64,000 nt of DNA. It comes from an uncultured Candidatus Saccharibacteria bacterium (GTDB taxonomy: Bacteria > Patescibacteriota > Andersenbacteria > UBA10190). The position numbers and the translations under genes are program-made. The DNA lies in contig CAZSUC010000001.1 of NCBI GenBank assembly GCA_964610055.1, positions 505,692 to 569,691 on the forward strand, read 5' to 3'. Every line of letters begins with the position of its first letter. The first letter of the stretch is position 1. Below, one piece after another: positions 4,270 through 32,260 of the stretch. Under the pieces are notes generated by a model, which did not search any database, was not told where the DNA came from, and saw nothing but the letters and a program-made list of their open reading frames with translations.

Positions 4270-5663
4270 ACTTTATCCTCCTGAATTGGCTTGGCTGATA
4301 ACAAGAACGGATTGCGACTAATTTTCAGCATTAACCATAATTTAAGAATAGGTTTAGTTACTACTACCGCAGTAAACATTGACAGAATAACTCCAAACGA
4401 AAAAGTAACCGCAAAACCACGAATCATTGAAGTGCCAAAGCTGTATAAAATAACCGCTGTAATCAGACTAGATACATTTGAAGCCAAAATAGAACTCCAG
4501 GCCTCTCGAAAGCCATCATTCACACTAAACATAACATCTTTACCGGCTCTCACATTTTCTCGAAAACGCTCAAAAATCAAGACATTAGCATCCACCGCCA
4601 TTCCAATCGAAAGAATAAGCCCGGCAATCCCAGCTAAAGTTAAAGTAACAGGCATTAACTTGATCAGAGTAATCAATACTGCCACGTATAAGGTTAAGGC
4701 TAAGGAAGCAATTAATCCGGGAGCACGGTAAAAAACAATCATCCACAACGCTACCGCCATCAATCCCAAAAGTGCGGCGGCTAAGCTTTGTTCAATTGAA
4801 CGTTGCCCCAAGGACGGACCAACAGTTTGCTGACCAATTAACTCAATCGGAACCGGTAACGCCCCAGCATTTAAACTCTGCGCCAAATCTTTTGCCTCTT
4901 GCACTGTAAAACCGCCTGAAATCACCGCGTGTCCATTAGTAATCTCAGATTGGACTACCGGTGCGCTAACTGGTACCCCGTCTAAATAAATAGCAATGCG
5001 TTTGTTCAAATTTTCTTTAGTTAGCTCCGCAAACAGCTCTTTCCCCTCATCGTTAAACTCCAAATTTACTTGCGGCGTGCCTGTAACCTGGTCAAATGAC
5101 ACAGTGGAATGTTTTAAATACTTGCCTGTTAGTTTAGTTCTTTCAAAAACTGGCCCCGTAATCTCACTAGTATCGTCTAAATTATATTGTTGTACTGCTT
5201 CTTCTTCACTAACCTCACGTCGAAAATCAAGCTGTGGAGTCTCTCCGATCAATTCAATCGCTTGATCAGAATCATGAATGCCAGCTAGCTCTACAATTAC
5301 CCGCTGCTCATCTCCAACTCGATTTGTTTGCACTACTGGTTCTGAAACACCAAAAGAGTTAACGCGTTTTTCAATTACATCTCGAACTCCGGCTAATGCA
5401 TCAGGGACTTCATCTGCTGACAAACCGCTTGTGTCGGCTCGATACACTAAATGCACCCCGCCCTGTAAATCTAAGCCAAGTTTAATGTTTAAATCTCGGT
5501 AAAAACTGCCTATATGAATGATGGGATGACTAGGCGAAGCAATCCAAAAACTAAACCCACCTAACAACGCAATCGCCCACACGGTTAACCATAAACGCAT
5601 TCGTTCTTGCATAAACCTACTATATCTATCTTTTGAGCTATTCGTAAAGCTCATAAAAAGCAT
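4266..5663 (-). CDS. secD: Protein-export membrane protein SecD
   Basis: SecD motifs (LGLDLQGGVHLVY, RTD-like C-terminal transmembrane bundle). Overlaps secF by 4 nt. Confidence 0.9.
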   Translation of the reverse strand: MLFMSFTNSSKDRYSRFMQERMRLWLTVWAIALLGGFSFWIASPSHPIIHIGSFYRDLNIKLGLDLQGGVHLVYRADTSGLSADEVPDALAGVRDVIEKRVNSFGVSEPVVQTNRVGDEQRVIVELAGIHDSDQAIELIGETPQLDFRREVSEEEAVQQYNLDDTSEITGPVFERTKLTGKYLKHSTVSFDQVTGTPQVNLEFNDEGKELFAELTKENLNKRIAIYLDGVPVSAPVVQSEITNGHAVISGGFTVQEAKDLAQSLNAGALPVPIELIGQQTVGPSLGQRSIEQSLAAALLGLMAVALWMIVFYRAPGLIASLALTLYVAVLITLIKLMPVTLTLAGIAGLILSIGMAVDANVLIFERFRENVRAGKDVMFSVNDGFREAWSSILASNVSSLITAVILYSFGTSMIRGFAVTFSFGVILSMFTAVVVTKPILKLWLMLKISRNPFLLSAKPIQEDKV

Positions 5664-5860
5664 CTGATTTTATGCGTTCTTGACATATAACATTAAACAT
5701 GATAAATTCTCATTAGGCCAAGCGGAATCACATTTTGCATCGCATCATGTGATTCACCCGGAGGTGTAATATTACAAGGGTATCGCTTGTTGTGGGAAGA
5801 TCGGTCCTCCCTGACGCTTCCAGTTCGGTCAGTCAGTCCTAGGCGCCTGACCCCGAACAA

Positions 5861-5912
5861 AGCAGTTACCAAGTCGAAAGGCGTATAGGTAACTGCTCTT
5901 TTTTATTTTCCG
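5861..5912. terminator. Bidirectional intrinsic terminator-like hairpin between secA and secD
   Basis: Stem AGCAGTTACC (5861-5870) pairs with GGTAACTGCT (5888-5897). Plus strand: followed by CTTTTTTATTTT. Minus strand: A-tract upstream and TTGTT downstream. It directly abuts the secA stop codon (5903-5905). Confidence 0.5.
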
Positions 5913-8500: not shown

Positions 8501-8510
8501 AGCGTGCAGC

Positions 8511-8816
8511 TTACCGGGTATTTGCTTTTTTGTCTCGTACTTTTTTAAGTTGTTGTTTAAGAGCTGTTAAAGCGGCATCAAAGACATCTTGAACATTTTC
8601 GCCATGACGCTCAGCATGCAAAACTTCCTTACCTTGGCTTACATTTAAAGCACACGTCACTACCTTGCCTTTAATATGGTGATTGCCTCGCTGAAAACGA
8701 ATATCAGCAATTCCGTGCTCATCCGCTAGTTTATCTAATTGCTGACATTTCTTCTGGATCAGCTCCAAATCAATTTCTGTTAATTCTAAACCTGTTTTTG
8801 AGATATTGTATTTCAT
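8511..8816 (-). CDS. hpf: Ribosome hibernation promoting factor / RaiA (short form)
   Basis: 101 aa with S30AE/YfiA-like sequence. Confidence 0.75.
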   Translation of the reverse strand: MKYNISKTGLELTEIDLELIQKKCQQLDKLADEHGIADIRFQRGNHHIKGKVVTCALNVSQGKEVLHAERHGENVQDVFDAALTALKQQLKKVRDKKANTR

Positions 8817-17807: not shown

Positions 17808-19262
17808 TTAAGGCTGTCTTTCTGGGGTTAAATCTAATGTGATGCGCCCAGTAATTCTCGGCACAGAACTAACCCAAAACGGCCATAAATCAATCTTAGC
17901 TTGTTGCACTCCCGGCAGCCCTTCCAAGTACTGATTTGCCCCAGATTCGCTTTGTCCAGCCAATTTTTCAGTTAAAGTATCAATAGCAATTTTAGGAATA
18001 GTCGTATGAGTAACCCGAGCTTTTATTATTGCTGTGCTGTCCTCCCAATTAATATCATCAGCTGTTTTAGAAAAAGAAATTGGACCGGGGAATAGCATAT
18101 AATCATCCTCTAAATGACTCTCTAGAGCTTGAGCCAAGGCATCCTCCAGGGCTTGTTGCTCGTAACCAAACACTCTCATGGTAATGCGCCCGCTGTATGT
18201 TAACTCGGGTATTCGGGTACCAACCTCAGGAGTCGTTGTAAAATTATCAATTTCTGCATTCCAACTCTCGTCTAGCAAAGTCCAGCCTTCAGGCAACTCG
18301 CTTCTAATATCAACCTCAACTTCGCTCTTAGCTGCTTCTGCCGCCGCCTGACGAGCAGATTCTATATCCGCTTCCGATACGACTTGCACTTCTTCGCCCG
18401 ACCCACCAGTAAAGGTAGTTGTTGTTTCTGCGTACACTAAAGCCTGAGCAGCGTCACTTAATGCTGCAAAATTTAATCTCTGCGGCTCAATGTTACCCTC
18501 TGGCCCTGCTACAGCCGCTTCTACTGTAGCAGTGGCTTGTGTGACTCCGCTCGCACTAGCAGCTGGCACAGTTACATTTTTGTCTAGATAAAACAATTGC
18601 CCATCAGTAGTAACTAAACGGCTGTGCTCAATAATTTTTTGTTCGTCAAAAGACCGATTGATAATTTTCACTGTTCCTCGGGCTTTCTCGCCAATAGTTT
18701 CTTTACCCTGTACTTGTACTGTCCCCTGAACCTCTATTTCTCGAAAAAAAGAAGTTCCCGTAATCGTATTTTCCCCGCCTCCTTCCGCCGCAATTTTTAT
18801 TTCTTCCTCTAGTAATAAAGGCGCAGTTTTTAGCGTTAACTCAATCTTAGCTTTTGGTAAAAAAATCGCTCCTGCTAATAACGCCGCTACCAAACCAATC
18901 GCTAAAATACTTAAAACAACTGCTCGCTCACGTACTCCTAAATGCGCAGCGCGGACAGGTGACTGCTCCTTTGATTGTTTAGATTCTTTTACTGGAATTC
19001 TGGGGGGCAATTTTTGAATTGCCTCACCTAACTCAGGCGTTGGTTCTGGTTGTAACTGAGCTTCTGGTTGTAATGAACCCTTACGCATTCTGCGTCCAAT
19101 TGACTGACTTGGATACGCTTTACGACTAATATCAAAGCTACTCACTCCTCGCTTCGCTGGACGACGAGTATTTGGTTGGTTGATCTCATTCCACTCAGGA
19201 TGATTTGTTTCCGGAATATGCGACTTAGGAGTAATCGAGTGATTAGGCTTAATGTCTCTCAT
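17808..19262 (-). CDS. Hypothetical single-pass membrane protein with proline/charged-rich N-terminal region and large extracytoplasmic domain
   Basis: A roughly 110-aa low-complexity N-terminus, one hydrophobic helix (AVVLSILAIGLVAALLAGAIFL), then about 340 aa with no motif I recognise. Confidence 0.4.
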   Translation of the reverse strand: MRDIKPNHSITPKSHIPETNHPEWNEINQPNTRRPAKRGVSSFDISRKAYPSQSIGRRMRKGSLQPEAQLQPEPTPELGEAIQKLPPRIPVKESKQSKEQSPVRAAHLGVRERAVVLSILAIGLVAALLAGAIFLPKAKIELTLKTAPLLLEEEIKIAAEGGGENTITGTSFFREIEVQGTVQVQGKETIGEKARGTVKIINRSFDEQKIIEHSRLVTTDGQLFYLDKNVTVPAASASGVTQATATVEAAVAGPEGNIEPQRLNFAALSDAAQALVYAETTTTFTGGSGEEVQVVSEADIESARQAAAEAAKSEVEVDIRSELPEGWTLLDESWNAEIDNFTTTPEVGTRIPELTYSGRITMRVFGYEQQALEDALAQALESHLEDDYMLFPGPISFSKTADDINWEDSTAIIKARVTHTTIPKIAIDTLTEKLAGQSESGANQYLEGLPGVQQAKIDLWPFWVSSVPRITGRITLDLTPERQP

Positions 19263-19287: not shown

Positions 19288-21069
19288 CTATTCCAAAACA
19301 GCTTTAATGCGACGAATGCCAGCTCCAGCCGATTCCTCTTTTTTTATCTTAAAATGGCCTAATTCTCCAGTGCGAGACACATGGGGACCTCCGCAAATCT
19401 CTTTTGAATAGTCACCAATCGTATAGACACTCACTTTTTCTTCATATTTATGGGTAAACAATCCAATCGCACCAGCAGCTTTTGCTTCACCCACTGTCAT
19501 CTCTTCTCTGATTACCGGTAAATTTTGTTCAATCTGTTCGTTAACCTGTTGCGTAACCTGGTCAATTTGTTCCGGAGTTAACTTCGCATCATGCGTAAAA
19601 TCAAATCGTAATCTTTCAGGATTTATATTGCTTCCTTTTTGTTGCACATGATCACCTATGATACGCCGCAAAGCCTGATGCAATAAATGTGTAGTCGTAT
19701 GATATCGAACTGATTGTTCCGAATGATCAGATAGGCCACCCGCAAAACGCCCTGCTGTTGCCGTGCGCGACGTATCGCGATGTTCTTGTAGCGCCTTATC
19801 AAAACCTGCGTGATCAATTTCTAACCCCTTTTCATGCGCAATCTCTTCAGTTAACTCTAACGGAAAACCATATGACTCATACAATCTAAACACAACATCG
19901 CCTGGAATTGTATCCTTCCAGTTAAAACCAGTCTTTGCTAATTCCTTTAACCCCCGATCTAAAGCTGACTGAAAACGTTGAATTTCTTGTCCCAACTCGT
20001 TCAAGACTAAATCTTGGTGCTTTCTTAAACTAGGATAAGATTCCGCATATTCATTAATTACACACTCCGCGCCCGCACGCATCAAAGTTTCAATATTTTT
20101 TATTCCCAAAATTCGCGCTGACCGAACTGCGCGTCGAATAATGCGACGTAAAACATAACCTTGTTCTGACTTACTAGGCGCAATCGGAACATCGTCCCCC
20201 AAGACAAAAGTCGCCGCTTTTATATGATCGGCTAAAATTCTTTCCTGTCTCTCGTCTGCTTGCGATTCATTTTGACGAATCAGTTCCATTAAAGGTTGAT
20301 AAGAGTCAATTTCATAAATCGAACTCAATCTATTCAAAACCATAACCGTTCGCTCTAAACCCATGCCAGTATCTACGTTTTGCTGTGGCAATGACTCATA
20401 TTCACCGCTATCCGTGCGGTTAAATTGCATAAATACGTCATTCCAAATTTCTACCCAAGAATTATTCTCTGGATCAAATTTAACTGGCGGATCGGATTCT
20501 CCGGTCCAAAAAAACATTTCTGTATCTGGCCCTTGCGGCCCCGGAGCCTTCCCTCCAGCTGGCCACCAGTTATCTTCTTTCCCTAAAAAGGCAATTCTTT
20601 CTTCTGGTACACCAACTGATTTCCACACTTCGAATGCTTCATTGTCCCGTTGGTTTTGCTTATCTCCTCCAAAGACACTTACTGCTAAATATTCAGGTTT
20701 GATTCCTAACCATCGCGCATCAGTCAAGAATTCCCAACTAAATCTAATTGCTTCTTCTTTAAAATAATCACCTAAAGACCAATTCCCTAACATTTCAAAT
20801 ACAGTGGCATGGGTCGGATCTCCCACAGCTTCAATATCGGTCGTGCGTAAACACTTTTGAACATCTGTTAAGCGCGTACCAGCTGGATGAGGCTGACCTT
20901 TTAAATACGGTACTAACGGGTGCATACCAGCCGTAGTAAACAAAACTGACGGATCATTTTCTGGTACTAAGGGTGCCGATGAGATACGTGCATGCCCTTT
21001 GCTTTCAAAAAAACGTTGATATGTTTCTCTTAAGTCTCGAGAGGTTAATTTCTGCATAAGTTGCAGCAT
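19288..21069 (-). CDS. alaS: Alanyl-tRNA synthetase, short form (catalytic and editing domains; no C-terminal C-Ala domain)
   Basis: Class II AlaRS N-terminus (FFESKGHARISSAPLVPENDPSVLFTTAGM) plus editing-domain motifs HTTTHLLHQAL and CGGPHV. At 593 aa it is far shorter than the roughly 870 aa of canonical AlaS. Confidence 0.85.
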   Translation of the reverse strand: MLQLMQKLTSRDLRETYQRFFESKGHARISSAPLVPENDPSVLFTTAGMHPLVPYLKGQPHPAGTRLTDVQKCLRTTDIEAVGDPTHATVFEMLGNWSLGDYFKEEAIRFSWEFLTDARWLGIKPEYLAVSVFGGDKQNQRDNEAFEVWKSVGVPEERIAFLGKEDNWWPAGGKAPGPQGPDTEMFFWTGESDPPVKFDPENNSWVEIWNDVFMQFNRTDSGEYESLPQQNVDTGMGLERTVMVLNRLSSIYEIDSYQPLMELIRQNESQADERQERILADHIKAATFVLGDDVPIAPSKSEQGYVLRRIIRRAVRSARILGIKNIETLMRAGAECVINEYAESYPSLRKHQDLVLNELGQEIQRFQSALDRGLKELAKTGFNWKDTIPGDVVFRLYESYGFPLELTEEIAHEKGLEIDHAGFDKALQEHRDTSRTATAGRFAGGLSDHSEQSVRYHTTTHLLHQALRRIIGDHVQQKGSNINPERLRFDFTHDAKLTPEQIDQVTQQVNEQIEQNLPVIREEMTVGEAKAAGAIGLFTHKYEEKVSVYTIGDYSKEICGGPHVSRTGELGHFKIKKEESAGAGIRRIKAVLE

Positions 21070-21110
21070 AGCTAATCTGTGCTATTCTGTCATCGTTGTT
21101 CTTATTTAAT

Positions 21111-21297
21111 GAGACTGTAGCTCAATGACAGAGCATGTGAATCCAGGACATAGGGTATGTCAAGTCCTATCTTCATAGAAAAACGGGATAAGTCAACTCC
21201 TCCCGATTTTTTGTGAATAGGGCGCAATTCTCTAATACAGAATTGCCGGCAGCACTATTGTCTTCACAGGTCGTGGGTTCAAATCCTACCAGTCTCA
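21111..21297 (+). tRNA. tRNA-like gene with a roughly 116-nt insertion within the anticodon arm. Anticodon unresolved (CCA/Trp if the insertion lies between positions 37 and 38).
   Basis: 21111-21140 reads GAGACTG-TA-GCTC-AATGACA-GAGC-A-TGTGA (acceptor 5' strand, D-arm, 5' anticodon stem). 21264-21297 reads TCACA-GGTC-GTGGG-TTCAAAT-CCTAC-CAGTCTC-A (3' anticodon stem, variable loop, canonical T-arm, and an acceptor 3' strand complementary 7/7 to 21111-21117, then the discriminator). No CCA is encoded. A plus-strand terminator follows. Confidence 0.5.
21179..21212. terminator. Bidirectional terminator-like hairpin located inside the tRNA insertion
   Basis: AAAAA, then CGGGA (21184-21188), a 12-nt loop, TCCCG (21201-21205), then ATTTTTT. 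The T-tract is present in both orientations. It could terminate the minus-strand LOG gene about 120 nt upstream. Confidence 0.45.
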
Positions 21298-21302
21298 TCT
21301 TT

Positions 21303-21329
21303 AGTCCCTTATTTATAAGGGACTTTCTT
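21303..21329 (+). terminator. Intrinsic terminator downstream of the tRNA-like gene
   Basis: A 9-bp stem, AGTCCCTTA (21303-21311) paired with TAAGGGACT (21316-21324), with a 4-nt loop, followed by TTCTT. The T-run exists only on the plus strand. Confidence 0.5.
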
Positions 21330-22017
21330 AAAAATACTTACGTTCTTTTGAATCCTTGATCAGATTGAAAGCTTCTTGAGCCGTATCTACGATTGTATAA
21401 ATTTCTGTATCTCCAGGCGCAATAGTTTTATATTTTTCCACTAAATGAGTTCTCACCCAACTATCAAGTGGACCCCAAAACTCAGCTCCTAGACAAATTG
21501 CTGGCACATCCTCCATTTTTTTAGTTTGCAGCAAAGTAATCATTTCAAAAAACTCGTCTAAAGTTCCAAACCCACCCGGAAAGAAAACATATGCCTGCGC
21601 TGAAGCTGACAGCATGACTTTACGAGTAAAGAAATAATGGAAACCAATACCTTTATCAACATATGGATTTCGTCGTTGTTCCGACGGTAATTCAATATCT
21701 AACCCTATCGATTCTCCACCGGCCTCATGTGCCCCCCGGTTACCAGCCTCCATAATTCCCGGCCCACCACCAGTAATCACAGTAAATCCTGCCTCTCCAA
21801 GTAATTGCCCTAACTCACGCGCTTGTTTATACCAAGGAGAATCTTCTGTTAAACGAGCTGACCCAAAAAAAGTTACTTCTTTTCTTAGTGGTGCTAAAAA
21901 TTCAAATCCAGAAATAAATTCAGCCATAATCCGAAAAATGCGCCAATTCGCATCCTCGGCAAAATTAAAAGGCTTATCAATATTGAACAAATCTACTTCC
22001 TTTGCAGTATTACGCAT
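21328..22017 (-). CDS. LOG-family protein (cytokinin riboside 5'-monophosphate phosphoribohydrolase / TIGR00730 family)
   Basis: Signature motifs GGGPGIMEA and PGGFGTLDE. Confidence 0.8.
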   Translation of the reverse strand: MRNTAKEVDLFNIDKPFNFAEDANWRIFRIMAEFISGFEFLAPLRKEVTFFGSARLTEDSPWYKQARELGQLLGEAGFTVITGGGPGIMEAGNRGAHEAGGESIGLDIELPSEQRRNPYVDKGIGFHYFFTRKVMLSASAQAYVFFPGGFGTLDEFFEMITLLQTKKMEDVPAICLGAEFWGPLDSWVRTHLVEKYKTIAPGDTEIYTIVDTAQEAFNLIKDSKERKYF

Positions 22018-22041
22018 AACTCAAACTATTATAGCACATTC

Positions 22042-23685
22042 TTAAAGCGGCAGAGGTGGTAAAACTTTTTGCGCTTCCTGCTGCTTATTTTTATCTTGTC
22101 TTACAATATCCCAACATTCTTTACAGTATGCTGGTTTCCCTTGAGTGGGCAGAAAAGGAACGTCCGCCTGTTTTCCGCAACGAGCACACGTAATGATGTG
22201 TTTATGCGTATTTTTATTCCGGCTTTTTTGCTGATCTTTTTGCAAAAAACTCGCCAGGTCATTAATCGGTGCTTCTTTTGACTTAAGCACCACCTCTTCT
22301 AAAGCATTAGAGGCAATCTCCGAAGCAGACGGAATAGCAGATGTTTGCTTACGAGTATTCACCTGATCATTGCTTTCTTCTCGTCCTTCTTCCTCAAAAG
22401 CAGAACCGCTCCAGCGTCTAATTTTATCTTCAACAATCTGTTTTTTTCTGCCAAAACGTTCTCGCGAAACTTTTCGCACCACTTCACCTTTTGTAAACTT
22501 AAGTTCTTCTGGTGGCAACGTTTTCATACTAAACGGACGACTACTAATTCCGTTAATCATCAACTTGATATACGCGTTATATTTATCCAAATTTACTAAA
22601 TCAGCTTGCGTAAACACCGGCACAAATTCTTGTTCTAAATACTCTGCATCCGCTGCCCCTACTCTAAACGATACGATCGTGCCTACGTTTCCAAAAACTG
22701 CATCAGTCACCTCTTCTTCCATCTGTTTCACGTATTGATGTGCAATGGTTAGGTTGAGACGATATTTTCTTGCCTCCGATAAAATATCAGCAAAAGATTC
22801 AGTCGCAAAATTCTGAAATTCGTCTACGTACAAATAAAAATCTTTGCGTTCTTCTTCTGGAATTGCTGCCCGATCCATCGCTGCTAACTGAATTCGATTG
22901 ATCAACATTGCGCCTAACAGCCCCGAGTTATCCTCGCCAATTTTGCCTTTCGAGACATTCACTAACAAAATCTTTCCTTCATTCATAATCTCGTTCATAT
23001 TGATCGTGCTTTTAGGCTGCGCCACGATATTACGAATAATAGATGAACTTAATAGCTGCCCCACTTTGTTTTGAATTGGAGAAATCGCCTCGGTTCGAAA
23101 ACGCTCGTTATAGTTGGCAAACTCAGTCGTCCAAAAAGCTTTCACCACCGGATCCTGGATACAATCCACTACTTTTTTACGATAAGTTTTATCTGACAAC
23201 ATCCGTAAAATACCTAGAATTGTACTCGACGGATAATCCAGTAACGCTAAAATTGTATTTCTCAAAATATATTCCAACCGTGGCCCCCATGAATCCGCCC
23301 AAATTTTCTTTAATGAGCTCACTAGTCCAGAAGCAATCAGATATTTATACTGCGGGTCAAAAGCTTCTAATACATTAAATGCCACCGGATAATCTACATC
23401 GGAAGGATCAAAATACACCACGTCATTTATCCGTTCTGGTGGAATTGCATTTAATAATTTCTCGACCGTGTCCCCGTGCGGATCGACATAACAGACTCCT
23501 TTCCCCTGCACGATATCCTGAATAATCATATTCTCTAGCAACGTCGACTTTCCTACTCCTGTCTTTCCAATTACATATACATGTCTGCGCCTATCATCAG
23601 GGTAAATACCAAATTGTCGGCGTTGATTACGAAAATTCGTCTCTCCTAACACGGTAATATCATTTGTTTTATTCTCATCCGCCAT
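22042..23685 (-). CDS. Soluble TraG/TraD/VirD4-like (FtsK-HerA superfamily) P-loop ATPase with C-terminal CxxC...CxxC zinc ribbon
   Basis: Walker A (YVIGKTGVGKST), Walker B (FYLYVDEFQNF), and a downstream block (RKYRLNLTIAHQYVKQ...NVGTIVSFRVGAADAEYL) resembling the TraG-D_C coupling-protein C-terminal domain. No N-terminal transmembrane segments. The C-terminus reads CARCGKQ...CKEC. Confidence 0.6.
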   Translation of the reverse strand: MADENKTNDITVLGETNFRNQRRQFGIYPDDRRRHVYVIGKTGVGKSTLLENMIIQDIVQGKGVCYVDPHGDTVEKLLNAIPPERINDVVYFDPSDVDYPVAFNVLEAFDPQYKYLIASGLVSSLKKIWADSWGPRLEYILRNTILALLDYPSSTILGILRMLSDKTYRKKVVDCIQDPVVKAFWTTEFANYNERFRTEAISPIQNKVGQLLSSSIIRNIVAQPKSTINMNEIMNEGKILLVNVSKGKIGEDNSGLLGAMLINRIQLAAMDRAAIPEEERKDFYLYVDEFQNFATESFADILSEARKYRLNLTIAHQYVKQMEEEVTDAVFGNVGTIVSFRVGAADAEYLEQEFVPVFTQADLVNLDKYNAYIKLMINGISSRPFSMKTLPPEELKFTKGEVVRKVSRERFGRKKQIVEDKIRRWSGSAFEEEGREESNDQVNTRKQTSAIPSASEIASNALEEVVLKSKEAPINDLASFLQKDQQKSRNKNTHKHIITCARCGKQADVPFLPTQGKPAYCKECWDIVRQDKNKQQEAQKVLPPLPL

Positions 23686-23688
23686 AGC

Positions 23689-24969
23689 TTATACGTACGG
23701 TAAATTATCAGGTGGTGTCGCCATACCACTCTTCGCCCAAGTAACTCCCGGAGTTCTAACATAACGAGTTGGCAAATGAAAGATTGTTGCTAGTTCTTCC
23801 GCTGTCATCATCTGACCCGACTCATCTCCCCAAAAATCACGGGATTGATAATTCACTAAGGCTACTCGTTTACGCCACATTCTTCGCGCATGCTTCATAA
23901 AATAATTTGGGCCATTAGTTTTATTTCTTGATGGCTTAAAACTATTTAAATGAAACGTATTAAATTGCTTAAAAGCACCAACGGCTTTACTGATATTGGG
24001 CTTATATAATTTTCCGGCCGGGGCAATATAAATCACTCGTATTTTTGCTAAAAACCCCGTTCGGGAAACTTTTTGCAATATTCCTTTCATGGCCGCATCT
24101 TCAGCCGGATTGCTAAACTTTAGGATACGTTCTTGTTTTTCTTCTTCCGCCACCAAAGCCTCAGGACCCTCAAAAGCCGCTTTCATCAGTAATAAGGGGA
24201 AAGATGCAATAGCTTGAACTGCGCGTACAAATAAATTGGGTTCCGGATCCTCCTGGGGCTTTCCTGATATTTTAGAAATTTCTTCTTGTCCTTTTTCCGC
24301 CCATTTTGCAATCGCTCCTGCATCTATCGGTCGGATAAGAACTTGTACCCAAAATTCTTCCCCCGAACCAACATTAGAATAAGCCTCCACTAATGCCTGA
24401 TGAGGATCCATAAACTTTATGTCTTCTGCCAAAGCTTCCTCGTATTCTCGATATACCCGAATCGGATAAATATCAGATTCCACCAATTCAATATCAGCGC
24501 TCCATAAATCGTATGTCTTCTCTAAATTACGATAATCAAAACGACGCGTATAATCTGGTGCTTCTTTCACTTCAGCAGAAGGATATTGTCCATAAATCAC
24601 TCCTTCAAAAAATTTTGCATGTGCTGTCGGAACTATCATGAAATAACGTACTTCATTTTGACGGCACCAGATTTCGCATGAATACCAAGCCAAGAAATAT
24701 CCCATAAAATATTTTTCAACCAAATCTGGATTTTTATGAATTCCACCCCACACTTCAAAAGCATTTTCCATTGCCTTTGGTGTTTGATCATTATCTTCTG
24801 GAATCGAAATCTCAAAAACAGTCCATTCAATCGTAGAAACGTATTCAATGTGCTTAATCAGACGATAAACCTCCCAGGCTATCCATAAAGCTAAGACCAT
24901 TACCAAAATCCAGCCCCACGCCAAAATAGCGTCAAGCAGCACCACCACGGCGGCGCCAAAATCTATCAT
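23689..24969 (-). CDS. Hypothetical membrane protein (N-terminal transmembrane helices plus a roughly 380-aa soluble domain), probably translationally coupled to the downstream ATPase
   Basis: N-terminal hydrophobic segments (AAVVVLLDAILAWGWILVMVLALWIAW). Only 3 nt separate it from the ATPase gene. No motif I recognise. Confidence 0.4.
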   Translation of the reverse strand: MIDFGAAVVVLLDAILAWGWILVMVLALWIAWEVYRLIKHIEYVSTIEWTVFEISIPEDNDQTPKAMENAFEVWGGIHKNPDLVEKYFMGYFLAWYSCEIWCRQNEVRYFMIVPTAHAKFFEGVIYGQYPSAEVKEAPDYTRRFDYRNLEKTYDLWSADIELVESDIYPIRVYREYEEALAEDIKFMDPHQALVEAYSNVGSGEEFWVQVLIRPIDAGAIAKWAEKGQEEISKISGKPQEDPEPNLFVRAVQAIASFPLLLMKAAFEGPEALVAEEEKQERILKFSNPAEDAAMKGILQKVSRTGFLAKIRVIYIAPAGKLYKPNISKAVGAFKQFNTFHLNSFKPSRNKTNGPNYFMKHARRMWRKRVALVNYQSRDFWGDESGQMMTAEELATIFHLPTRYVRTPGVTWAKSGMATPPDNLPYV

Positions 24970-24990
24970 GTTAATATTATAGCACTCCTC

Positions 24991-26046
24991 TTACGGACGA
25001 CGGAGGGTATATCGATTTTCAGCTGTCTTACGAAAACGCTTATGATTCTGTAAGCCTAATAAAATTGTATTTTTCTTGACTTGACGCTGATTTAAAACTC
25101 GTTTCACCACTTCATCTCGAGTTAACGGAGTATTGGCTTCAGTTAATAATTTTTCAATCACATCTGAAACAGTACCAGCGATATATCCCCACTCTGCCAA
25201 CCCATACAGACCGCGTCCAACCAATACAAAGCGCTTATCTTTAATTAATTCATTATGTACGGTTTGCGCATTGGCGCGTTTGTGGTCAAAATTTGCCGCA
25301 TTAATTAATTCTGTAATCTTAGTAAAATGCTCAGGATTCTTATGGCGTCGCATAACCACATAGGCCTTATCACCTACTCCGCGTGGCTTTGTTTCTGACC
25401 AATCTAATAGACCCCACTCAGCAAATGGCGTCTTATCAATATCTTTGCTTGCGGTTAGAAAAGCTAAAATATGTCTTTCTGGTAACGCTTTATCATCCGC
25501 TTTTAAGTTAGTTCGAATCATTGTTACTATTTCCGATTCTGGTAATGGATGATTATATTGACGTAAAACATTAATCGCTTCTTCTATCACACTTTCGCTT
25601 GTACTTGATACCATATCTGGTAATCGCCAATGAGGCTGGAATAAAGAATGGCGAGATTCTAAACGATAAGGAGGTAAAACATCTAAGTAAAATACAACCG
25701 CATTACGACCTAAATCTTGATGAGCAAATTCAGCAATTGCTGTTACCGCGTTCTCTTCCGTTAAAACTGAGCCGTATGCCAAAAATACCTCATTGATTAA
25801 ATCAGTAGCCGGGTCAGTCAAATGCTTTAGGCCCACCAGCGCCTTCTTGGCTTGAGACTGAATCTGTCGCACTCGTTCACGTGTAATTCCATACTCTCGT
25901 CCGATCGCCTCTAAGGTTTCCGGTTCGTCTTTATTTAATCCATATCGACGCGTCATTACGTCCCGAGAACGTTCGTCCAGAACCTTCATCAGGTTATCAA
26001 TGTTTTTCTTTAAATCAACATTTATTTTTGAGGCCATAGGTGTCAT
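24991..26046 (-). CDS. Sigma-70 region-4-like HTH DNA-binding protein with C-terminal domain of unknown function
   Basis: N-terminal segment (LDERSRDVMTRRYGLNKDEPETLEAIGREYGITRERVRQIQSQAKKAL) closely matches sigma-70 region 4.2. About 270 aa with no recognisable motif follow. Confidence 0.5.
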   Translation of the reverse strand: MTPMASKINVDLKKNIDNLMKVLDERSRDVMTRRYGLNKDEPETLEAIGREYGITRERVRQIQSQAKKALVGLKHLTDPATDLINEVFLAYGSVLTEENAVTAIAEFAHQDLGRNAVVFYLDVLPPYRLESRHSLFQPHWRLPDMVSSTSESVIEEAINVLRQYNHPLPESEIVTMIRTNLKADDKALPERHILAFLTASKDIDKTPFAEWGLLDWSETKPRGVGDKAYVVMRRHKNPEHFTKITELINAANFDHKRANAQTVHNELIKDKRFVLVGRGLYGLAEWGYIAGTVSDVIEKLLTEANTPLTRDEVVKRVLNQRQVKKNTILLGLQNHKRFRKTAENRYTLRRP

Positions 26047-26093
26047 TTATTATTCTTGCTCGTATTTATAGTAAATAATTCTTAATATTGCAA

Positions 26094-26122
26094 ATTATAA
26101 CACTACATTGACTCTAAGTCAA
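26094..26122 (-). promoter_or_regulatory. Near-consensus sigma-70 promoter for the HTH gene. The -35 overlaps a perfect palindrome.
   Basis: On the minus strand: TTGACT (complement of 26117-26122), a 17-nt spacer, then TATAAT (complement of 26094-26099). The palindrome TTGACTCTAAGTCAA (26108-26122) contains the -35 hexamer. Confidence 0.5.
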
Positions 26123-26213
26123 GGATACTGCTTCTTAACATACCACCCTACACTAAGCCTCTATTTTTGTACAGCACTGGCTTATTTTCAATATGTCAAA
26201 TCTGATTGACAAA

Positions 26214-27482
26214 CTAGTTAAATAACTCCCTTGCAATACCATCTAAATATCCTGCCGAAAATATGACAATTAAGCCAAAATATTGCGATTCTTTCTGTAA
26301 TATTTCCTTTAATTCTGACCAGTCAGTCAGTGCTATGACGGGCTTATTTTTTGTCTCTAATTCATCTGCTAGTACTGTACTCTCTATTTTATTTTTACCT
26401 TCTTGTCTGGCTCGATAGACCGGACCAACAACTACTTTATCTGCCTCGCTCAAGGCCTCAACAAAATCATGTTGAAACTCTTGGAGACGATCCTCAGTGT
26501 GCGGTTCAATAATTGCCAAGATCTTTTTATCCGCATAATGAGCCCGCGCACCTTTAATTGTAGCCATAATTTCAGTTGGGTGATGGCCATAATCGCTAAC
26601 AATTAACGCTCGATTCAAGTTCCCGATAATTTCAAAACGACGTCCTAATCCCGGAAAAGTAGCTAGCGCCGCTTCCGCTTGGTGACGAGCAACTCCTAAC
26701 AATTCCGCCACCTTGACTGCCAAAGCCGCGTTATGCTGCATATGTTGACCCGGTATCGGTATTTTTATTTCACCCACTAAATCATTTCCAATTGTAATTA
26801 ATTGATTATTTTTAATAACCGGTTTCCATTCACTATATGTTTGTTCATCAGTAATCAATTTTCCTGTAGCCGGTAATTTATCAACCATGACTTGAAAACT
26901 CTGATAAACATCTTTTTTTGATTTGAAAAAATCAGGATGATCAAAATCTAAACTTGTGACAATTAAATATTCCGGATTTAACTTCCAAAAATGATTGCGA
27001 TATTCATCTGCTTCCACTACTAACCACTCATTTTTACCTACCCAGGCATTACCCAGCGGCCACCCCGGAACTTTTGCCCCTAAAAGTATACTCGCTTCAA
27101 CCTTATTATTTAGCAGAATATGCCCCAAAAAAGCTGTTGTTGATGATTTTCCATGCGTACCCGCTACAGCAATAACGTGATAATCCTGACTAAAATCACC
27201 TAACTCTTCTTGATATGGACGCAATGAAATATTAAATTCTTGCGCCATCATCAGTAACGGATGCTGGGCAGTTAAAGCATCCGAGTACACAACCCTTTGA
27301 CATGTTTGAATGCGATCCCGCATTTCCTTTTCGGTTATCAATTCAAATTCTTTTAAATCAGGATCATTAAATATGTCTTGATTTTGGTCACAACCACACA
27401 CTCTCACTCCCTTTGACTGCTCGAGTGCCGCTAACGCTCTCATTCCTGCCCCTCCAATTCCTAGAAAGCAAACTTGACTCAT
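26214..27482 (-). CDS. murC: UDP-N-acetylmuramate--L-alanine ligase
   Basis: N-terminus FLGIGGAGMRALA and Mur-ligase P-loop GTHGKSSTTA. Confidence 0.9.
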   Translation of the reverse strand: MSQVCFLGIGGAGMRALAALEQSKGVRVCGCDQNQDIFNDPDLKEFELITEKEMRDRIQTCQRVVYSDALTAQHPLLMMAQEFNISLRPYQEELGDFSQDYHVIAVAGTHGKSSTTAFLGHILLNNKVEASILLGAKVPGWPLGNAWVGKNEWLVVEADEYRNHFWKLNPEYLIVTSLDFDHPDFFKSKKDVYQSFQVMVDKLPATGKLITDEQTYSEWKPVIKNNQLITIGNDLVGEIKIPIPGQHMQHNAALAVKVAELLGVARHQAEAALATFPGLGRRFEIIGNLNRALIVSDYGHHPTEIMATIKGARAHYADKKILAIIEPHTEDRLQEFQHDFVEALSEADKVVVGPVYRARQEGKNKIESTVLADELETKNKPVIALTDWSELKEILQKESQYFGLIVIFSAGYLDGIARELFN

Positions 27483-28696: not shown

Positions 28697-29806
28697 TTAC
28701 TCTTTGGCATAGCGGCTAATATTCAACAGCATGCCGGCTGCAAAGAGCGTGGTTGCTAAAGCCGATCCTCCATAACTAATAAACGGCAAAGGAATTCCCG
28801 TCATCGGAGTAACTCCTAAAATTGATCCAATATTGATAAACGCCTGCACAATAATCCAAGAAGTAATTCCAACCGCTAATAACCTACCAAAGATATCTGG
28901 TGTTTTTCGCGCAATACTAAATCCTCGCCACGCCAAGATCGCAAACACAAAAATTACCAAAGTACTTCGAATAAATCCTAATTCTTCCGCAATTACTGCA
29001 TAAATAGAATCCCCGGCAGGTTCAGGCAAATATTGATACTTTTGTCGACTTCGCCCAAATCCTAATCCCCAGATTCCACCTGATCCAGCTGCCAATAATG
29101 CTTGATTAATCTGATAGCCAATGCCTTGTGGATCTAATTCCGGATGCAAATAAACCATAATACGGTTCAATCGGTAACTCGCCGTTTTAACTAATATGCC
29201 TAAAATAACCAAACCACTCAGACCTAATAGAGATAAGTGCCTTAATCTAATGCCTCCCGCGTAAATCATGGCACTTCCAATCGCTAAAATACTGATTAAA
29301 GTGCCTAAATCTGGCTGCATGATAATTAAAATACTGATAATGCCCATAATAATTAAAAATGGCATCACCCCTTCTTTAAAATTCCGAATATGAGCACTCC
29401 TAGTTTCCAATAAAGCGGCTAAATAAATAATAAAAGCTAATTTCGTTAACTCCGTCGGCTGAATTGTAATCGGCCCGATTCCAATCCACCGCGCTGCTCC
29501 ACCTGAAGCCACCTGTAATTGCGGAATAAAGACTAAGACAAGCAAAATTAATGACGCTAACAATACCGGTAATGCCATTGGCCGCCAGCTTCTGTAAGGA
29601 ATATACATTCCGGCTAATAAAGCAATCAGACCAACAGAACCGCCATAAAGAAGCTGATGTTTCAAAAAATAAAAAGGATCCTGACTAAATCTTTCCGCAA
29701 TTACTGAAGAAGCTGAAGCCACCATCATTAAACCAAACAAAGTTAACCCTACAATCACTGCCAATAAAACAATATCAAATGGTCGGCTAGGTTTATTCTG
29801 CGTCAT
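28697..29806 (-). CDS. ftsW: SEDS-family peptidoglycan glycosyltransferase / cell division protein FtsW
   Basis: Ten-transmembrane SEDS topology with characteristic PEPAGDSIYA-type motif. Sits in the division/cell-wall cluster context. Confidence 0.85.
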   Translation of the reverse strand: MTQNKPSRPFDIVLLAVIVGLTLFGLMMVASASSVIAERFSQDPFYFLKHQLLYGGSVGLIALLAGMYIPYRSWRPMALPVLLASLILLVLVFIPQLQVASGGAARWIGIGPITIQPTELTKLAFIIYLAALLETRSAHIRNFKEGVMPFLIIMGIISILIIMQPDLGTLISILAIGSAMIYAGGIRLRHLSLLGLSGLVILGILVKTASYRLNRIMVYLHPELDPQGIGYQINQALLAAGSGGIWGLGFGRSRQKYQYLPEPAGDSIYAVIAEELGFIRSTLVIFVFAILAWRGFSIARKTPDIFGRLLAVGITSWIIVQAFINIGSILGVTPMTGIPLPFISYGGSALATTLFAAGMLLNISRYAKE

Positions 29807-31199
29807 ATTTCAATTGTAACACCGCCTTTTTAAAAGCCTCTCCTCTTTCAAACTCATTTTTAAATGATCCAAAACTTGTTGCTCCTGGTGACATTAAAAC
29901 CACTTCTCCAGCCTGAGCCGTATCTCGAGCTAATTGCACCGCGTCTTCTATCGTTGATGCCGCTGTCATTGGTACAGTGCATTGCAATAAACGCAAAGCA
30001 TCTTGCATTATATTAGTTGCATCACCTGGCAACCAAATTATATGTCCCAACTTCGCATTCATTACACATTTTGCCCAATTGTCGTACTTCAACCCTTTAT
30101 TATTTCCTCCCGCGATTAACACTATTTTTTGTTCGTGCCAATGCTCTAAAGCCGCACAACTAGCCTCCGGTATCGTTGCTGCTGAATCATTCACAAATGT
30201 CACCCCTTTATTTTCAGCTATGATTTCTTGTCGATGTGGTACACCAGTCCAAGACTTAAGTGCTAATCGCAACTTTTCAATAACGCCAAAATGCATTGCC
30301 AAAAATATACCAGGCAATAAATTCATCTGTCCTATCGCTCCGACATCCGGTAAATCACTTATTTTACATATTTCTGTCTTGATTCCATCTTTTACATAAA
30401 CAATTTTGTTAGCCTCGCAGCCAATACCATTTTGAGGAACCGTGCTGCGACTAAACCAATACTTACGTCCATTCCCTGTATCTTCCCATTTTCTAATATT
30501 AGGGTCGTCATAGTTCAAAAGAGCTAATTGATCGTTATTTTGTAGCGCAACTACTGAACGTTTTACAGCGTAATAGTCTTCTAACGATTCATATGTATTC
30601 AAATGATCCGGATATAAAGAAGTAACCACTACCACTGGAATATTTAAATTATGTTCAGCTAAAGCCTCTAAGCGCCAACTCGATAGCTCTACAACAATCG
30701 CATCTGTCGATTTGATTTTTGATAAATTTCCTAAAAGAGATTCTCCGTCAACTCCAATCATCCAAACTTTAGCATATATCGAACGTAAAATATGTCCTAT
30801 AAAGTGTGCTGTTGTCGTTTTTCCTTTTGTTCCTGTTATCGCAAAAATATTTTTTGTTGGTGCATATCTGATCAACAAACTACTGTCCATTTCAATTGGA
30901 ACCCCCGCCATACGCGCCATTTTTAGCCATTTTGAGTCACTTCTGACCGCTGGATTACGCACAACTAGATCGGCTTGTGTAAACCATTCCGGCTGATGCT
31001 CACCTAAATGCCATTCAAGTTCCGGACAATCAATTAATCTGTTTTTAATTTCTGCTAATTCCTGTTCTGTTTTTAAATCAGTCACTAAAACTCTAGCTCC
31101 TTGCTCGCATAACCATCGCACAGCACCTTCACCGCCACCTAGCTGACCTAAACCCATGACAGTAACTTTGCTTCCCTTTAAATCAGTAATCATGTCCAT
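29793..31199 (-). CDS. murD: UDP-N-acetylmuramoylalanine--D-glutamate ligase
   Basis: N-terminus KVTVMGLGQLGGGEGAVRWL and Mur-ligase P-loop GTKGKTTT. The ORF as given overlaps mraY, so the start is probably the Met at 31199 or the one at 31193. The Met at 31193 gives an ATGA overlap with the mraY stop. Confidence 0.85.
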   Translation of the reverse strand: MDMITDLKGSKVTVMGLGQLGGGEGAVRWLCEQGARVLVTDLKTEQELAEIKNRLIDCPELEWHLGEHQPEWFTQADLVVRNPAVRSDSKWLKMARMAGVPIEMDSSLLIRYAPTKNIFAITGTKGKTTTAHFIGHILRSIYAKVWMIGVDGESLLGNLSKIKSTDAIVVELSSWRLEALAEHNLNIPVVVVTSLYPDHLNTYESLEDYYAVKRSVVALQNNDQLALLNYDDPNIRKWEDTGNGRKYWFSRSTVPQNGIGCEANKIVYVKDGIKTEICKISDLPDVGAIGQMNLLPGIFLAMHFGVIEKLRLALKSWTGVPHRQEIIAENKGVTFVNDSAATIPEASCAALEHWHEQKIVLIAGGNNKGLKYDNWAKCVMNAKLGHIIWLPGDATNIMQDALRLLQCTVPMTAASTIEDAVQLARDTAQAGEVVLMSPGATSFGSFKNEFERGEAFKKAVLQLKYDAE

Positions 31200-32260
31200 T
31201 GTCCTCGTCCTACAATTGCAATCACCAAACCAATACCAGCCGAAACCGCCGCAATAATCCAAAAGCGCATTGTTACTTTTGTTTCCGGCCACCCCTTAGC
31301 TTCAAAATGATGATGAACTGGAGCTGACAAGAAGACTTTCTTCTTTAGTATTTTTTTTGAAGCCACTTGAATAATGACAGACGCTGATTCTAAAACTAAC
31401 GGAAACGCAATAATAGGCAAAACCAAAGCAGAGTTAGTCAGCATTGCAATAATTCCTAGGGTTGTGCCTAAACTCATCGCTCCCGTATCACCAATAAAAA
31501 ATCGAGCCGGATAAATATTAAACCATAAGAATGCCATTAGTGCCCCCACTATTGCCGCACAAAACATTGCTAATTCCATCCTCCCAATCACAAACGCTAA
31601 AGCTGTATAAGCCCCAAAACAAAATAACAAAATTCCACCGGCTAAACCATCTAAACCATCCGACTCATTAACTGAAAAAGCAGTTGAAACAATTACTAAA
31701 ATAAATAACGGCACATACCACCAACCAATTTCAAAATCATTTACTCCCGGCACATGAATTACGCTCCAACCAAGCTTCACGTAAAACCAATATGCTCCCC
31801 CCGCAGCAACCGCTGTATAGAGCAATAGTCTTTGCGTCATATTCATACCGCCAGTTTTTCCGCGTTTATGTACATTTAAATAGTCATCCCATAGCCCTAA
31901 TAACGCTGCAATCACTAGTGCCCCCAAAGGTAGCCAGGTTTGTGAGCGACTAAGAAAATTTAAATATTGTAACCATGGCCACGGCAAAATATATGCTCCC
32001 AGCCAAAATAATAACGCCAAGCCTAAAACTGTTCCCCAAACAATAATACCTCCTCCCACCGGAGTCCCCGCTTTTTCTGCATGCAACTTAGAGTAAATTG
32101 GCGTATTACCATTGTCTCTAATGCTTTTACCAAACTTATATTTATACAAAAAATGAGTTAAAACTGGCGTTAACCCCAAGGCGACTAAAAAAGTAATCAT
32201 TGCCAGTCCAATAACCCGCACCACGTCTATTACTAATTTTGGATCAGAAAATTGCAACAT
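31190..32260 (-). CDS. mraY: Phospho-N-acetylmuramoyl-pentapeptide transferase
   Basis: MraY/WecA-family polytopic membrane protein with conserved DD and HHH motifs (VHHHFE). Confidence 0.9.
   Translation of the reverse strand: MLQFSDPKLVIDVVRVIGLAMITFLVALGLTPVLTHFLYKYKFGKSIRDNGNTPIYSKLHAEKAGTPVGGGIIVWGTVLGLALLFWLGAYILPWPWLQYLNFLSRSQTWLPLGALVIAALLGLWDDYLNVHKRGKTGGMNMTQRLLLYTAVAAGGAYWFYVKLGWSVIHVPGVNDFEIGWWYVPLFILVIVSTAFSVNESDGLDGLAGGILLFCFGAYTALAFVIGRMELAMFCAAIVGALMAFLWFNIYPARFFIGDTGAMSLGTTLGIIAMLTNSALVLPIIAFPLVLESASVIIQVASKKILKKKVFLSAPVHHHFEAKGWPETKVTMRFWIIAAVSAGIGLVIAIVGRGQWT

Follow-up and report, generated by a model that had tools for sequence, protein, structure and literature searches.

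A 64-kb stretch of contig CAZSUC010000001.1 (hereafter the window, with its own numbering 1-64000), from an uncultured bacterium of the Candidate Phyla Radiation (CPR, or Patescibacteria), contains an operon of three minus-strand open reading frames (ORFs), collectively called the trio: gene 1 (24991-26046, 351 aa), gene 2 (23689-24969, 426 aa) and gene 3 (22042-23685, 547 aa). Genes 1 and 2 are separated by 21 nt and genes 2 and 3 by 3 nt, and the stop codon of gene 2 is in frame with the ATG of gene 3. Gene 1 encodes a DNA-binding protein with a sigma-70 region 4 and a HARE-HTH domain, gene 2 a membrane protein of the DUF8128 family, and gene 3 a soluble P-loop ATPase. Comparison with homologs suggests that genes 2 and 3 together encode a coupling protein of the DUF8128 type, split at its domain boundary, and the trio as a whole is a widely conserved CPR operon which is apparently inherited vertically. 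An initial annotation, made from the letters of the window, had given exactly these three ORFs with the same coordinates and gaps, and had proposed an orphan module for DNA translocation or defense.

The ATPase and its membrane partner

Gene 3 belongs to the TrwB/VirD4 family of coupling ATPases. It exceeds the cut-offs of the Pfam models TrwB_AAD_bind (30.8 bits, cut-off 20.5, profile positions 12-313 of 387), T4SS-DNA_transf (24.2 against 20.1 bits), TraG-D_C (25.5 against 22 bits) and DUF87 (26.3 against 23.2 bits). Among curated full-length models, the CD1115-family VirD4-like protein of NCBIfam comes nearest, and a search of PDB sequences returned TrwB (5.8e-7) and DotL (1.8e-4). More than 8,000 homologs of gene 3 were found. 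The translation contains a Walker A motif, GKTGVGKST (residues 40-48; 23542-23568, minus strand), in which G40, K41, T42, G43, V44, G45 and K46 are invariant in 39 sequences. The Walker B motif LYVDEF (residues 285-290; 22816-22833, minus strand) lies within DFYLYVDEF (282-290), with D288 and E289 invariant in 39 sequences, and the TraG-D_C-like block IVSFRVGAADAEYL is also present.

The predicted fold points to the same family. In Foldseek searches with an AlphaFold2 model of moderate confidence, coupling proteins top the ranking (DotL 2e-11, Cag-beta 3.5e-9, TrwB approximately 1e-8), ahead of HerA (1e-8 to 7e-7), DndH and the VirB4 C-terminal domain (4e-6, rank 40). The alignment with TrwB covers 410-430 columns at a template modeling (TM) score of 0.52-0.57 normalized to TrwB. 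Coupling proteins (TrwB/VirD4/TraD/TraG, DotL and Cag-beta) are therefore the best matches of gene 3 by both sequence and fold, and share with it the P-loop domain, the TraG-D_C block and an all-alpha insertion. In gene 3 this insertion occupies residues ~111-221 between Walker A and Walker B (23023-23355, minus strand), which corresponds in location to the all-alpha domain that coupling proteins have; the model has seven helices at 111-221, with moderate local confidence, and the assignment is provisional.

Both coupling proteins and gene 3 carry a C-terminal extension past the motor. In gene 3 it follows a disordered linker and consists of a treble-clef zinc ribbon of the form CxxC-x17-CxxC (residues 496-526; 22108-22200, minus strand), spelled C500xxC503-x17-C521xxC524 and matched by Pfam zf_Tbcl_2 (E 1.5e-12) and by NCBIfam TIGR04272 (CxxC-x17-CxxC domain, E 8e-13). 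All four cysteines are invariant in the 39 aligned sequences. The ribbon is found in 29 of 51 diverse orthologs and in 21 of 23 close ones, which makes it a frequent, accessory feature. Domains of the zf_Tbcl_2/TIGR04272 type bind zinc in small proteins of Methanosarcina (PMC12704099). The VirD4/TraG-like ATPase of the initial annotation is upheld by the scores above, and the Walker A, Walker B, IVSFRVGAADAEYL and zinc-ribbon motifs that it had listed can all be read in the translation.

Other ASCE (additional strand, catalytic glutamate) P-loop ATPases fit less well. FtsK/SpoIIIE and HerA belong to the same superfamily and are ring-shaped DNA pumps, but no gamma domain, multi-pass membrane domain, NurA or nuclease partner accompanies gene 3; the gamma and winged-helix domains of FtsK/SpoIIIE are absent from gene 3, and gene 2 has a single helix and is not polytopic. 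The possibility that gene 3 is an FtsK fragment, which the initial annotation had left open, was rejected: the FtsK_SpoIIIE model (PF01580) matches only 22 P-loop residues (34-55, E 0.033). Similarly, the VirB4 model TIGR00929 matches only 21 P-loop residues, and coupling proteins match gene 3 better than the VirB4 C-terminal domain does.

A hydropathy scan found no hydrophobic segment in gene 3. The membrane anchor of a coupling protein is thus missing from gene 3 alone and present in the gene 2-gene 3 pair. In known coupling proteins the anchor is two helices and a short loop, whereas here it is a separate 426-aa protein with a single N-terminal transmembrane helix and a large alpha/beta domain of ~380 aa. 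The helix lies at residues ~5-35 (24865-24957, minus strand) in the hydropathy scan and is part of a long helix (4-46) in the AlphaFold2 model of gene 2 (predicted local distance difference test score (pLDDT) 80.7, predicted TM score (pTM) 0.76). It is preceded by acidic residues and followed by R36, K39 and H40. Because a single helix precedes basic residues, the bulk of the protein is predicted to be cytoplasmic by the positive-inside rule.

Gene 2 is a member of DUF8128 (PF26449) according to the precomputed annotation of an identical protein (P0001) and of nearly all homologs. Searches of the Pfam, NCBIfam and PADLOC libraries gave no match to gene 2, the Pfam set having been searched without the PF26449 model, and no literature was found under 'DUF8128' or 'PF26449'. 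Word-indexed searches yielded 415 homologs, each of them from Andersenbacteria or another CPR source. When the profile was searched exhaustively, 2,185 cluster representatives (50% identity) matched at E<=1e-3, 720 of them below 1e-30. The best-conserved stretch of the family is a C-terminal motif, EELAT-x2-H-x-P ... G-x3-PP-x-NLPY (residues 391-425; 23695-23799, minus strand), with invariant columns at E392, T395, H398, P400, P420, P424 and Y425. The motif is largely kept in an alignment at 25-32% identity (A2). In fused homologs, described below, it directly abuts the ATPase. Since residues 403-426 have low pLDDT in the model, the motif may be a docking tail or a linker.

The fold of gene 2 gives a lead rather than a result. 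The 13 best PDB matches of the model in Foldseek are all TrwK/VirB4 chains of R388 (E 2e-5 to 1e-3), suggesting a fold like that of the VirB4 N-terminal domain, but the TM scores are only 0.32-0.38 and no support from sequence was found. The DUF8128 profile found nothing meaningful among PDB sequences and hhalign gave a probability of 0.1% against one VirB4, both of them weak tests. In length and in its layout of N-terminal plus C-terminal domains, gene 2 joined to the gene 3 motor resembles VirB4 (TrwK, R388). If gene 2 does share the VirB4 N-terminal fold, DUF8128-type coupling proteins would keep the ancestral two-domain layout of VirB4/VirD4, and would be an evolutionary intermediate between the two ATPases of the type IV secretion system (T4SS).

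Natural fusions show the relationship of the two proteins. In a 956-aa protein (P0383), the match to the DUF8128 profile spans residues 7-419 and is followed by a segment (421-869) with 63% identity to gene 3. One contig (L096) carries two tandem fused DUF8128-ATPase ORFs. Outside the CPR, the matches to gene 2 in a plasmid collection are on Bacillaceae megaplasmids, where they run directly into gene 3-like sequence; the Pontibacillus copy (NZ_CP062975) has a pilin-like conjugal protein, a CD1110-family VirB4 and a cell-wall hydrolase 3-14 kb away. The clearest example is Embleya sp. NBC_00888 (NZ_CP108785), which encodes an 819-aa fusion in which residues 45-403 align with the DUF8128 profile (hhalign E 4e-6, 345 columns, tail motif included) and residues 407-812 with gene 3 (31% identity, E 5e-77). 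Its genes are arranged in the order VirB6/TrbL_4, PrgI (VirB3), VirB4-like, fusion, Replic_Relax relaxase (L112 260-10328). Every non-CPR homolog found lies in or beside a T4SS gene set.

In the fusions of Embleya, Pontibacillus and Priestia (pFDU301A) the DUF8128-like domain aligns over its full length, including the EELA..H.P...PP..P tail, and the gene 3-like ATPase follows directly, with 31-58% identity in the aligned segments. Unlike the trio, these proteins are fused, have no zinc ribbon and have no adjoining partner with sigma region 4 and HARE-HTH. The Embleya fusion is inside a conjugation cluster and the Pontibacillus fusion beside a VirB4/pilin/hydrolase set, whereas the trio has neither. 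Loci with a fused homolog also encode a separate, genuine VirB4. Because such fusions exist and the Embleya protein sits in a conjugation cluster, DUF8128 is best read as the N-terminal domain of a coupling-protein subtype from monoderm conjugation systems. Genes 2 and 3 form one functional unit, with the CPR operon probably encoding this coupling protein in two pieces, and the missing anchor of gene 3 would be explained by the split. The initial annotation had treated the membrane protein and the ATPase as a pair, in agreement with the fusions and with the gene adjacency reported below. It was also right that gene 3 is without an anchor, but not in setting gene 3 apart from real coupling proteins on that ground, because the anchor is gene 2, which is fused to the ATPase in homologs.

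Some further observations were made on the fused loci. The fused genes of Pontibacillus (L026 10075-11493) and Priestia (L027 10233-10811) are split by self-splicing introns and are not degraded. Both megaplasmid genes contain two group I introns, and the Pontibacillus gene one group II intron in addition (Rfam 60-98 bits). In locus L026 the neighboring gene for the ribonucleotide reductase large subunit is also split into two ORFs. The Embleya cluster is on a 5.7-Mb linear replicon labeled as a plasmid, and has no entries in the gene table of the plasmid collection. Streptomyces sp. BHT-5-2 (NZ_CP081497) has a similar match to gene 2.

Gene 1 and the operon promoter

The gene 1 protein consists, in this order, of sigma region 4, a central region of unassigned fold, a HARE-HTH domain and a further winged-helix-like segment. 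In public gene calls the protein begins three codons later and is 348 aa long. Sigma region 4 (4.1 and 4.2, residues 10-72; 25831-26019, minus strand) is matched by Pfam Sigma70_r4 over residues 19-69 (E 6e-14), and residues 10-72 match region 4 of RpoS/SigA in the PDB sequence search (E 1e-10). It holds the recognition-helix motif TRERVRQI, and here it is near-identical to primary sigma factors; over 75 gene 1 orthologs the pattern 'eTLe.IG..ygiTRERVRQIE' is at least 80% conserved. The HARE-HTH domain (residues 227-286; 25189-25368, minus strand; Pfam E 5.5e-12) is of the RNA polymerase delta N-terminal type. It is the best-conserved part of the protein, with a mean column conservation of 0.70 over the same 75 orthologs. 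Region 4 of a sigma factor recognizes the -35 hexamer and also binds the RNA polymerase beta-flap, and the HARE-HTH fold is the N-terminal domain of the RNA polymerase delta subunit. The initial annotation had recognized the sigma region 4 and had called the remainder unknown, having overlooked the HARE-HTH domain.

Two classical assignments for gene 1 were rejected. It is not a sigma factor of the sigma-70 family, since regions 2 and 3 are missing (neither was found with Pfam) and only region 4 is present; NCBIfam sigma-factor models match with only their last ~65 profile positions, far below the cut-offs. It shares the delta-type HARE-HTH domain with the delta subunit (RpoE), but the domain is followed by a basic segment instead of the acidic delta tail, and the delta model RNAP_delt_lowGC (TIGR04567) scores 34.5 bits, under its cut-off of 42 bits. 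No described counterpart was found in the literature for the combination of sigma region 4 with HARE-HTH or for its linkage to a coupling protein.

The operon is preceded by a sigma-70-type promoter (26094-26122, minus strand) composed of TTGACT, a 17-nt spacer and TATAAT with an extended -10 TG. It agrees with the consensus at 11 of 12 positions and is the best site within 21000-27000; its end is 48 nt from the gene 1 ATG. The -35 hexamer is overlapped by the palindrome TTGACT-TAG-AGTCAA (TTGACTTAGAGTCAA; 26108-26122, strandless), a pair of -35-like half-sites in inverted orientation. The window has a single TTGAC-N5-GTCAA, where chance would give 0.04 copies. In 18 related loci there is exactly one copy per locus, always just upstream of gene 1 and usually with a -10 element 17 nt past the left half-site, and it is kept despite divergence of the surrounding sequence. 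The same pattern is found upstream of gene 1 in one distant locus (L025). A near-consensus promoter overlapping a palindrome, and with it a self-contained unit that has its own strong promoter and an operator-like element, had been pointed out in the initial annotation and are confirmed here.

The palindrome is a probable operator. Because it is made of inverted -35 hexamers and the adjoining gene encodes a domain that reads -35 hexamers, gene 1 is its predicted binder, and the simplest reading is that a gene 1 dimer would rival the housekeeping sigma factor at this site, a putative autoregulation. Against this, the exact palindrome was found in only 1 of 51 diverse metagenome loci. The palindrome is therefore lineage-restricted, and its candidacy as a universal operator was rejected for this reason. 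The general feature is a strong TTGACA plus extended -10 promoter before gene 1, which was seen in diverse orthologous loci; TTGACA is 12-fold enriched there and present in 28 of the 51.

Conservation and function of the operon

A first scan of genome collections with very specific peptide patterns returned only close relatives, collinear over 20 kb. In 21 related genomes the entire stretch from the dcw (division and cell wall) cluster through the trio and the LOG-family gene to alaS is collinear. As collinear close relatives say little about functional linkage, the synteny argument rests on distant loci. The first of these are a complete Moraniibacteriota genome, a Yanofskybacteria scaffold and a third CPR contig (L023-L025). 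In them the trio keeps its order on one strand between different flanks. A Sigma70_r4 gene, which may or may not have HARE-HTH, comes first, DUF8128 second, and third a DUF87/TrwB_AAD_bind/TraG-D_C gene, in which the zinc finger may be present or absent. Across CPR classes the identity to the window is 51-61% for gene 3, 34-38% for gene 1 and 26-30% for gene 2. Gene 3 is therefore as conserved as alanyl-tRNA synthetase (AlaRS), which is 51% identical across the same classes.

A set of 80 diverse metagenome loci, in which gene 2 is 27-34% identical to that of the window in all except L029 (52%), gave the same picture. Among the loci that could be assessed, a gene 3 homolog comes directly after gene 2 in 52 of 56, gene 1 stands ahead of gene 2 in 54 of 62, and all three genes occur in 39 of 46. 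Simple loss or relocation accounts for the exceptions. Where gene 1 is absent, secF abuts gene 2, and where gene 3 is absent, nusA or yceG comes after gene 2. The synteny of the trio in distant CPR classes with unrelated flanks is strong, and "orphan", the term of the initial annotation, no longer describes the module.

In most diverse CPR loci the trio comes immediately after secD and secF and shares their strand, as seen in L024, L025, L072 and 31 of the 49 loci among L029-L108 that could be assessed; often secA stands ahead of them, as in L025 and L072. This arrangement is one argument for a motor that handles protein, moving effector or pilin-like substrates to the CPR T4SS or exporting envelope proteins beside Sec, with gene 1 as no more than the transcription factor of the operon. 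Such a motor would agree with the fold search, in which the best match is DotL and the next Cag-beta, both from effector-translocating systems. It would agree as well with the proposal of protein export for CPR T4SSs, which are without relaxases (PMC10633639, PMC12102498). The Sec linkage may, however, be mere inherited gene order and is broken in the window, where secA-secD-secF (3397-8566) are on the same strand as the trio and ~18 kb from it. The order of the Foldseek matches depends on small differences in E-value and on a model of moderate confidence. In addition, the conserved partner of the motor is a multi-domain DNA-binding protein, and the Embleya fusion adjoins a relaxase in a layout typical of DNA conjugation. 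We consider a protein-handling motor improbable.

In two loci a second pair of genes was found directly after the trio (L072 9854-13121; L066 10724-12208). Its first protein has 569 aa and is soluble and cysteine-rich, with CxxC...CxxC ribbons at both ends and no Pfam match. It is followed by a gene 3 paralog without the zinc ribbon, 46% identical to gene 3 of the window. The cysteine-rich protein of L072 was tried as a DUF8128 homolog; hhalign was negative, and it is a different protein.

VirD4-like genes of the CPR have been surveyed by Quinonero-Coronel et al. 2025 (PMC12102498). That survey reports 5,713 VirD4-like homologs in 2,918 of 3,035 CPR genomes, very probably the same ATPase family as gene 3, and the second pair may account for there being about two such genes per genome. 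The ATPase family, its wide presence in the CPR and DUF8128 as an uncharacterized Pfam family are already known. The passages of the survey that were consulted do not mention the DUF8128 partner, the split or fused layout, the sigma region 4/HARE-HTH gene, the operon or the operator. Searchable literature likewise yielded no account of the conserved three-gene operon, its sigma region 4/HARE-HTH partner and the palindromic -35 operator, or of DUF8128 as a detached N-terminal domain of coupling proteins with fused relatives in conjugation clusters.

The reading we favor, with about even confidence, is that genes 2 and 3 supply the CPR T4SS with its coupling motor from a site apart from the channel genes, and that gene 1 is its regulator and perhaps a DNA adaptor. 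Gene 2 would sit in the membrane with its single N-terminal helix, and its cytoplasmic alpha/beta domain and conserved C-terminal tail would tether gene 3. Gene 3, presumably hexameric, would use ATP to push a polymer, most likely DNA, towards a membrane channel. The most likely channel is a monoderm-type T4SS, encoded elsewhere on the chromosome in most CPR genomes. Gene 1 would bind the inverted -35-like half-sites over the operon promoter and so regulate its own operon. The C-terminal extension of TraD binds the DNA-binding protein TraM, as the Pfam name of TraG-D_C also indicates. Gene 1 may pass DNA on to the motor in the manner of the relaxosome accessory proteins that serve TraD/TrwB, possibly via the zinc-ribbon tail. 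A split DUF8128 coupling protein fits the CPR T4SSs, which are of the monoderm conjugation type (PMC12102498).

A number of observations weigh against this reading. The trio is not near T4SS genes or a relaxase, as coupling proteins usually are: no VirB4, VirB6 or relaxase was detected among the window ORFs examined, and in the three distant loci L023-L025 the called genes up to 10 kb from the trio include no T4SS gene. The initial annotation had likewise reported no T4SS locus nearby. Phmmer searches with the VirB4, VirB6, PrgI and relaxase proteins of Embleya, Pontibacillus and Priestia found no matches in 1.3 Mb of CPR loci, at a sensitivity so low that even the gene 3 P-loops were not matched. 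Unlike the coupling proteins of mobile elements, the trio is chromosomal, apparently vertically inherited and phylum-wide, and its usual neighbors are housekeeping genes (secDF, the dcw cluster, alaS). According to the survey, only 148 of the 5,713 VirD4-like genes are near virB4, and in Southlakia the VirD4-like homolog is dispensable while the T4SS is essential. The survey also counts 109 relaxases in the 3,035 genomes; with relaxases almost absent, classical conjugative DNA processing would be unavailable. Wang et al. describe the Southlakia T4SS cluster as having neither a coupling protein nor a relaxase (PMC10633639). The structural evidence is also limited: the gene 3 model reaches only moderate confidence (pLDDT 66.7, pTM 0.61), and the Foldseek matches of the gene 2 model to VirB4 have the low TM scores given above.

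Many of these observations would be expected if the same two-piece machine had been co-opted as a T4SS-independent, membrane-tethered DNA translocase with a housekeeping job, for which gene 1 would be the DNA-loading and regulatory factor. The job could be DNA uptake and nucleotide scavenging, or an FtsK/SpoIIIE-like clearing or segregation of DNA at the division site. Co-option of VirD4-like genes is raised as a possibility in the survey itself, and the AlaRS-like identity of gene 3 across CPR classes (51-61%), the constant housekeeping neighbors (the end of mraY-murD-ftsW-murG-murC here, after secDF elsewhere), the lack of a relaxase to ready a conjugative substrate and the dispensable Southlakia homolog all agree with it. 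VirD4-like genes were also detected in 96% of CPR genomes and virB4 in 80% (PMC12102498), and the two are almost never adjacent. This gap, however, is what our own arithmetic gives for a genome completeness of ~80% with two paralogs of the ATPase and one virB4. It is therefore no evidence of independent occurrence, and the two readings are not separated by it. Similarly, two paralogs could mask essentiality in a transposon screen, and a second pair is present in L066 and L072. Also against co-option, all non-CPR homologs found are in or beside T4SS gene sets, only the Andersenbacteria-like lineage shows the link to the dcw cluster, and features specific to FtsK are absent. We regard the co-opted translocase as a tentative and somewhat doubtful alternative to the T4SS coupling motor.

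A broader form of the idea, that the trio is a CPR-wide machine which no longer serves conjugation or a T4SS at all and acts as a tethered DNA pump loaded by gene 1, seems unlikely to us. Gene 1 may then be a combination of two DNA-binding modules derived from RNA polymerase (sigma region 4 and the delta-type HARE-HTH), and the pump may meet a basic requirement of these reduced symbionts, such as the intake or movement of DNA across their single membrane, or DNA clearing or segregation at division.

The initial annotation had also suggested an anti-phage or anti-plasmid defense module, composed of an ATPase of the HerA/FtsK superfamily, a membrane partner and a dedicated regulator. The trio is indeed self-contained with its own operator. 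PADLOC matches mad8 to gene 3 (E 6.8e-18), together with weak HerA matches, and MzaA to the sigma region 4 of gene 1; HerA-based defense complexes also appear lower in the gene 3 fold search. The mad8 and HerA matches, however, reflect only the shared P-loop core, genes 1 and 2 have no system-specific PADLOC matches, and just 1 of 8 MADS genes is matched, with no nuclease, Sir2 or methyltransferase partner. Membership in HerA-NurA, Sir2-HerA, DUF4297-HerA and MADS systems was rejected because the partner genes are absent. Defense islands are patchy and fast-evolving, whereas the trio is near-universal in the phylum, collinear with housekeeping genes and as slowly diverging as a housekeeping gene, at the level of AlaRS. 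Searches of phage records returned no homolog and those of 2.9 million viral contigs only a single partial match, and base composition at 22-26 kb is the same as in the rest of the window. The suggestion finds no support in these data, and we hold a defense role to be highly improbable.

Patescibacteria make up a large share of bacterial diversity, cannot make nucleotides and live attached to hosts. In the one species tested, the T4SS is needed for growth (PMC12102498). The present analysis gives a near-universal CPR VirD4-like ATPase an anatomy: a membrane partner, a DNA-binding partner, an operator-like palindrome and fused relatives in conjugation systems. An ATPase that looked orphan becomes a defined three-part system with testable interactions, and DUF8128 is given a role. 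The operon offers an entry point to the question of whether CPR cells move DNA through the membrane with the gene 3 motor, and if the motor does prove independent of the T4SS, a conjugation protein would have been put to a new use in housekeeping.

Surroundings of the operon in the window

The trio stands at the end of a mraY-murD-ftsW-murG-murC cluster, which lies upstream of it. Downstream are a LOG-family gene, alaS and a conserved membrane protein of no assigned family. Farther off are SecA, SecD, SecF, Mur ligases, MurJ and polysaccharide genes. GC content and GC skew at 22-26 kb are the same as in the rest of the window, and no tRNA genes or Rfam matches were found in the 64 kb. The GC skew is negative in all 2-kb bins of the window (1-64000, -0.17 to -0.37), and between 13.7 and 36.2 kb every ORF of at least 120 aa that does not overlap a longer one is on the minus strand. 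This pattern is consistent with a single replichore and a strong gene-strand bias.

In the upstream cluster, the murD ORF (29793-31292, minus strand; a mechanical call of 499 aa with a GTG start) overlaps the mraY-like ORF (31190-32260, minus strand) by ~100 nt, and the real start of murD is probably a codon farther downstream. Below the trio, positions 17808-19262 (minus strand) encode a 484-aa protein with one predicted membrane helix and without a Pfam match. It is found beside alaS in all Andersenbacteria-like loci, and a weak relative with 24% identity is located near alaS in the distant locus L025.

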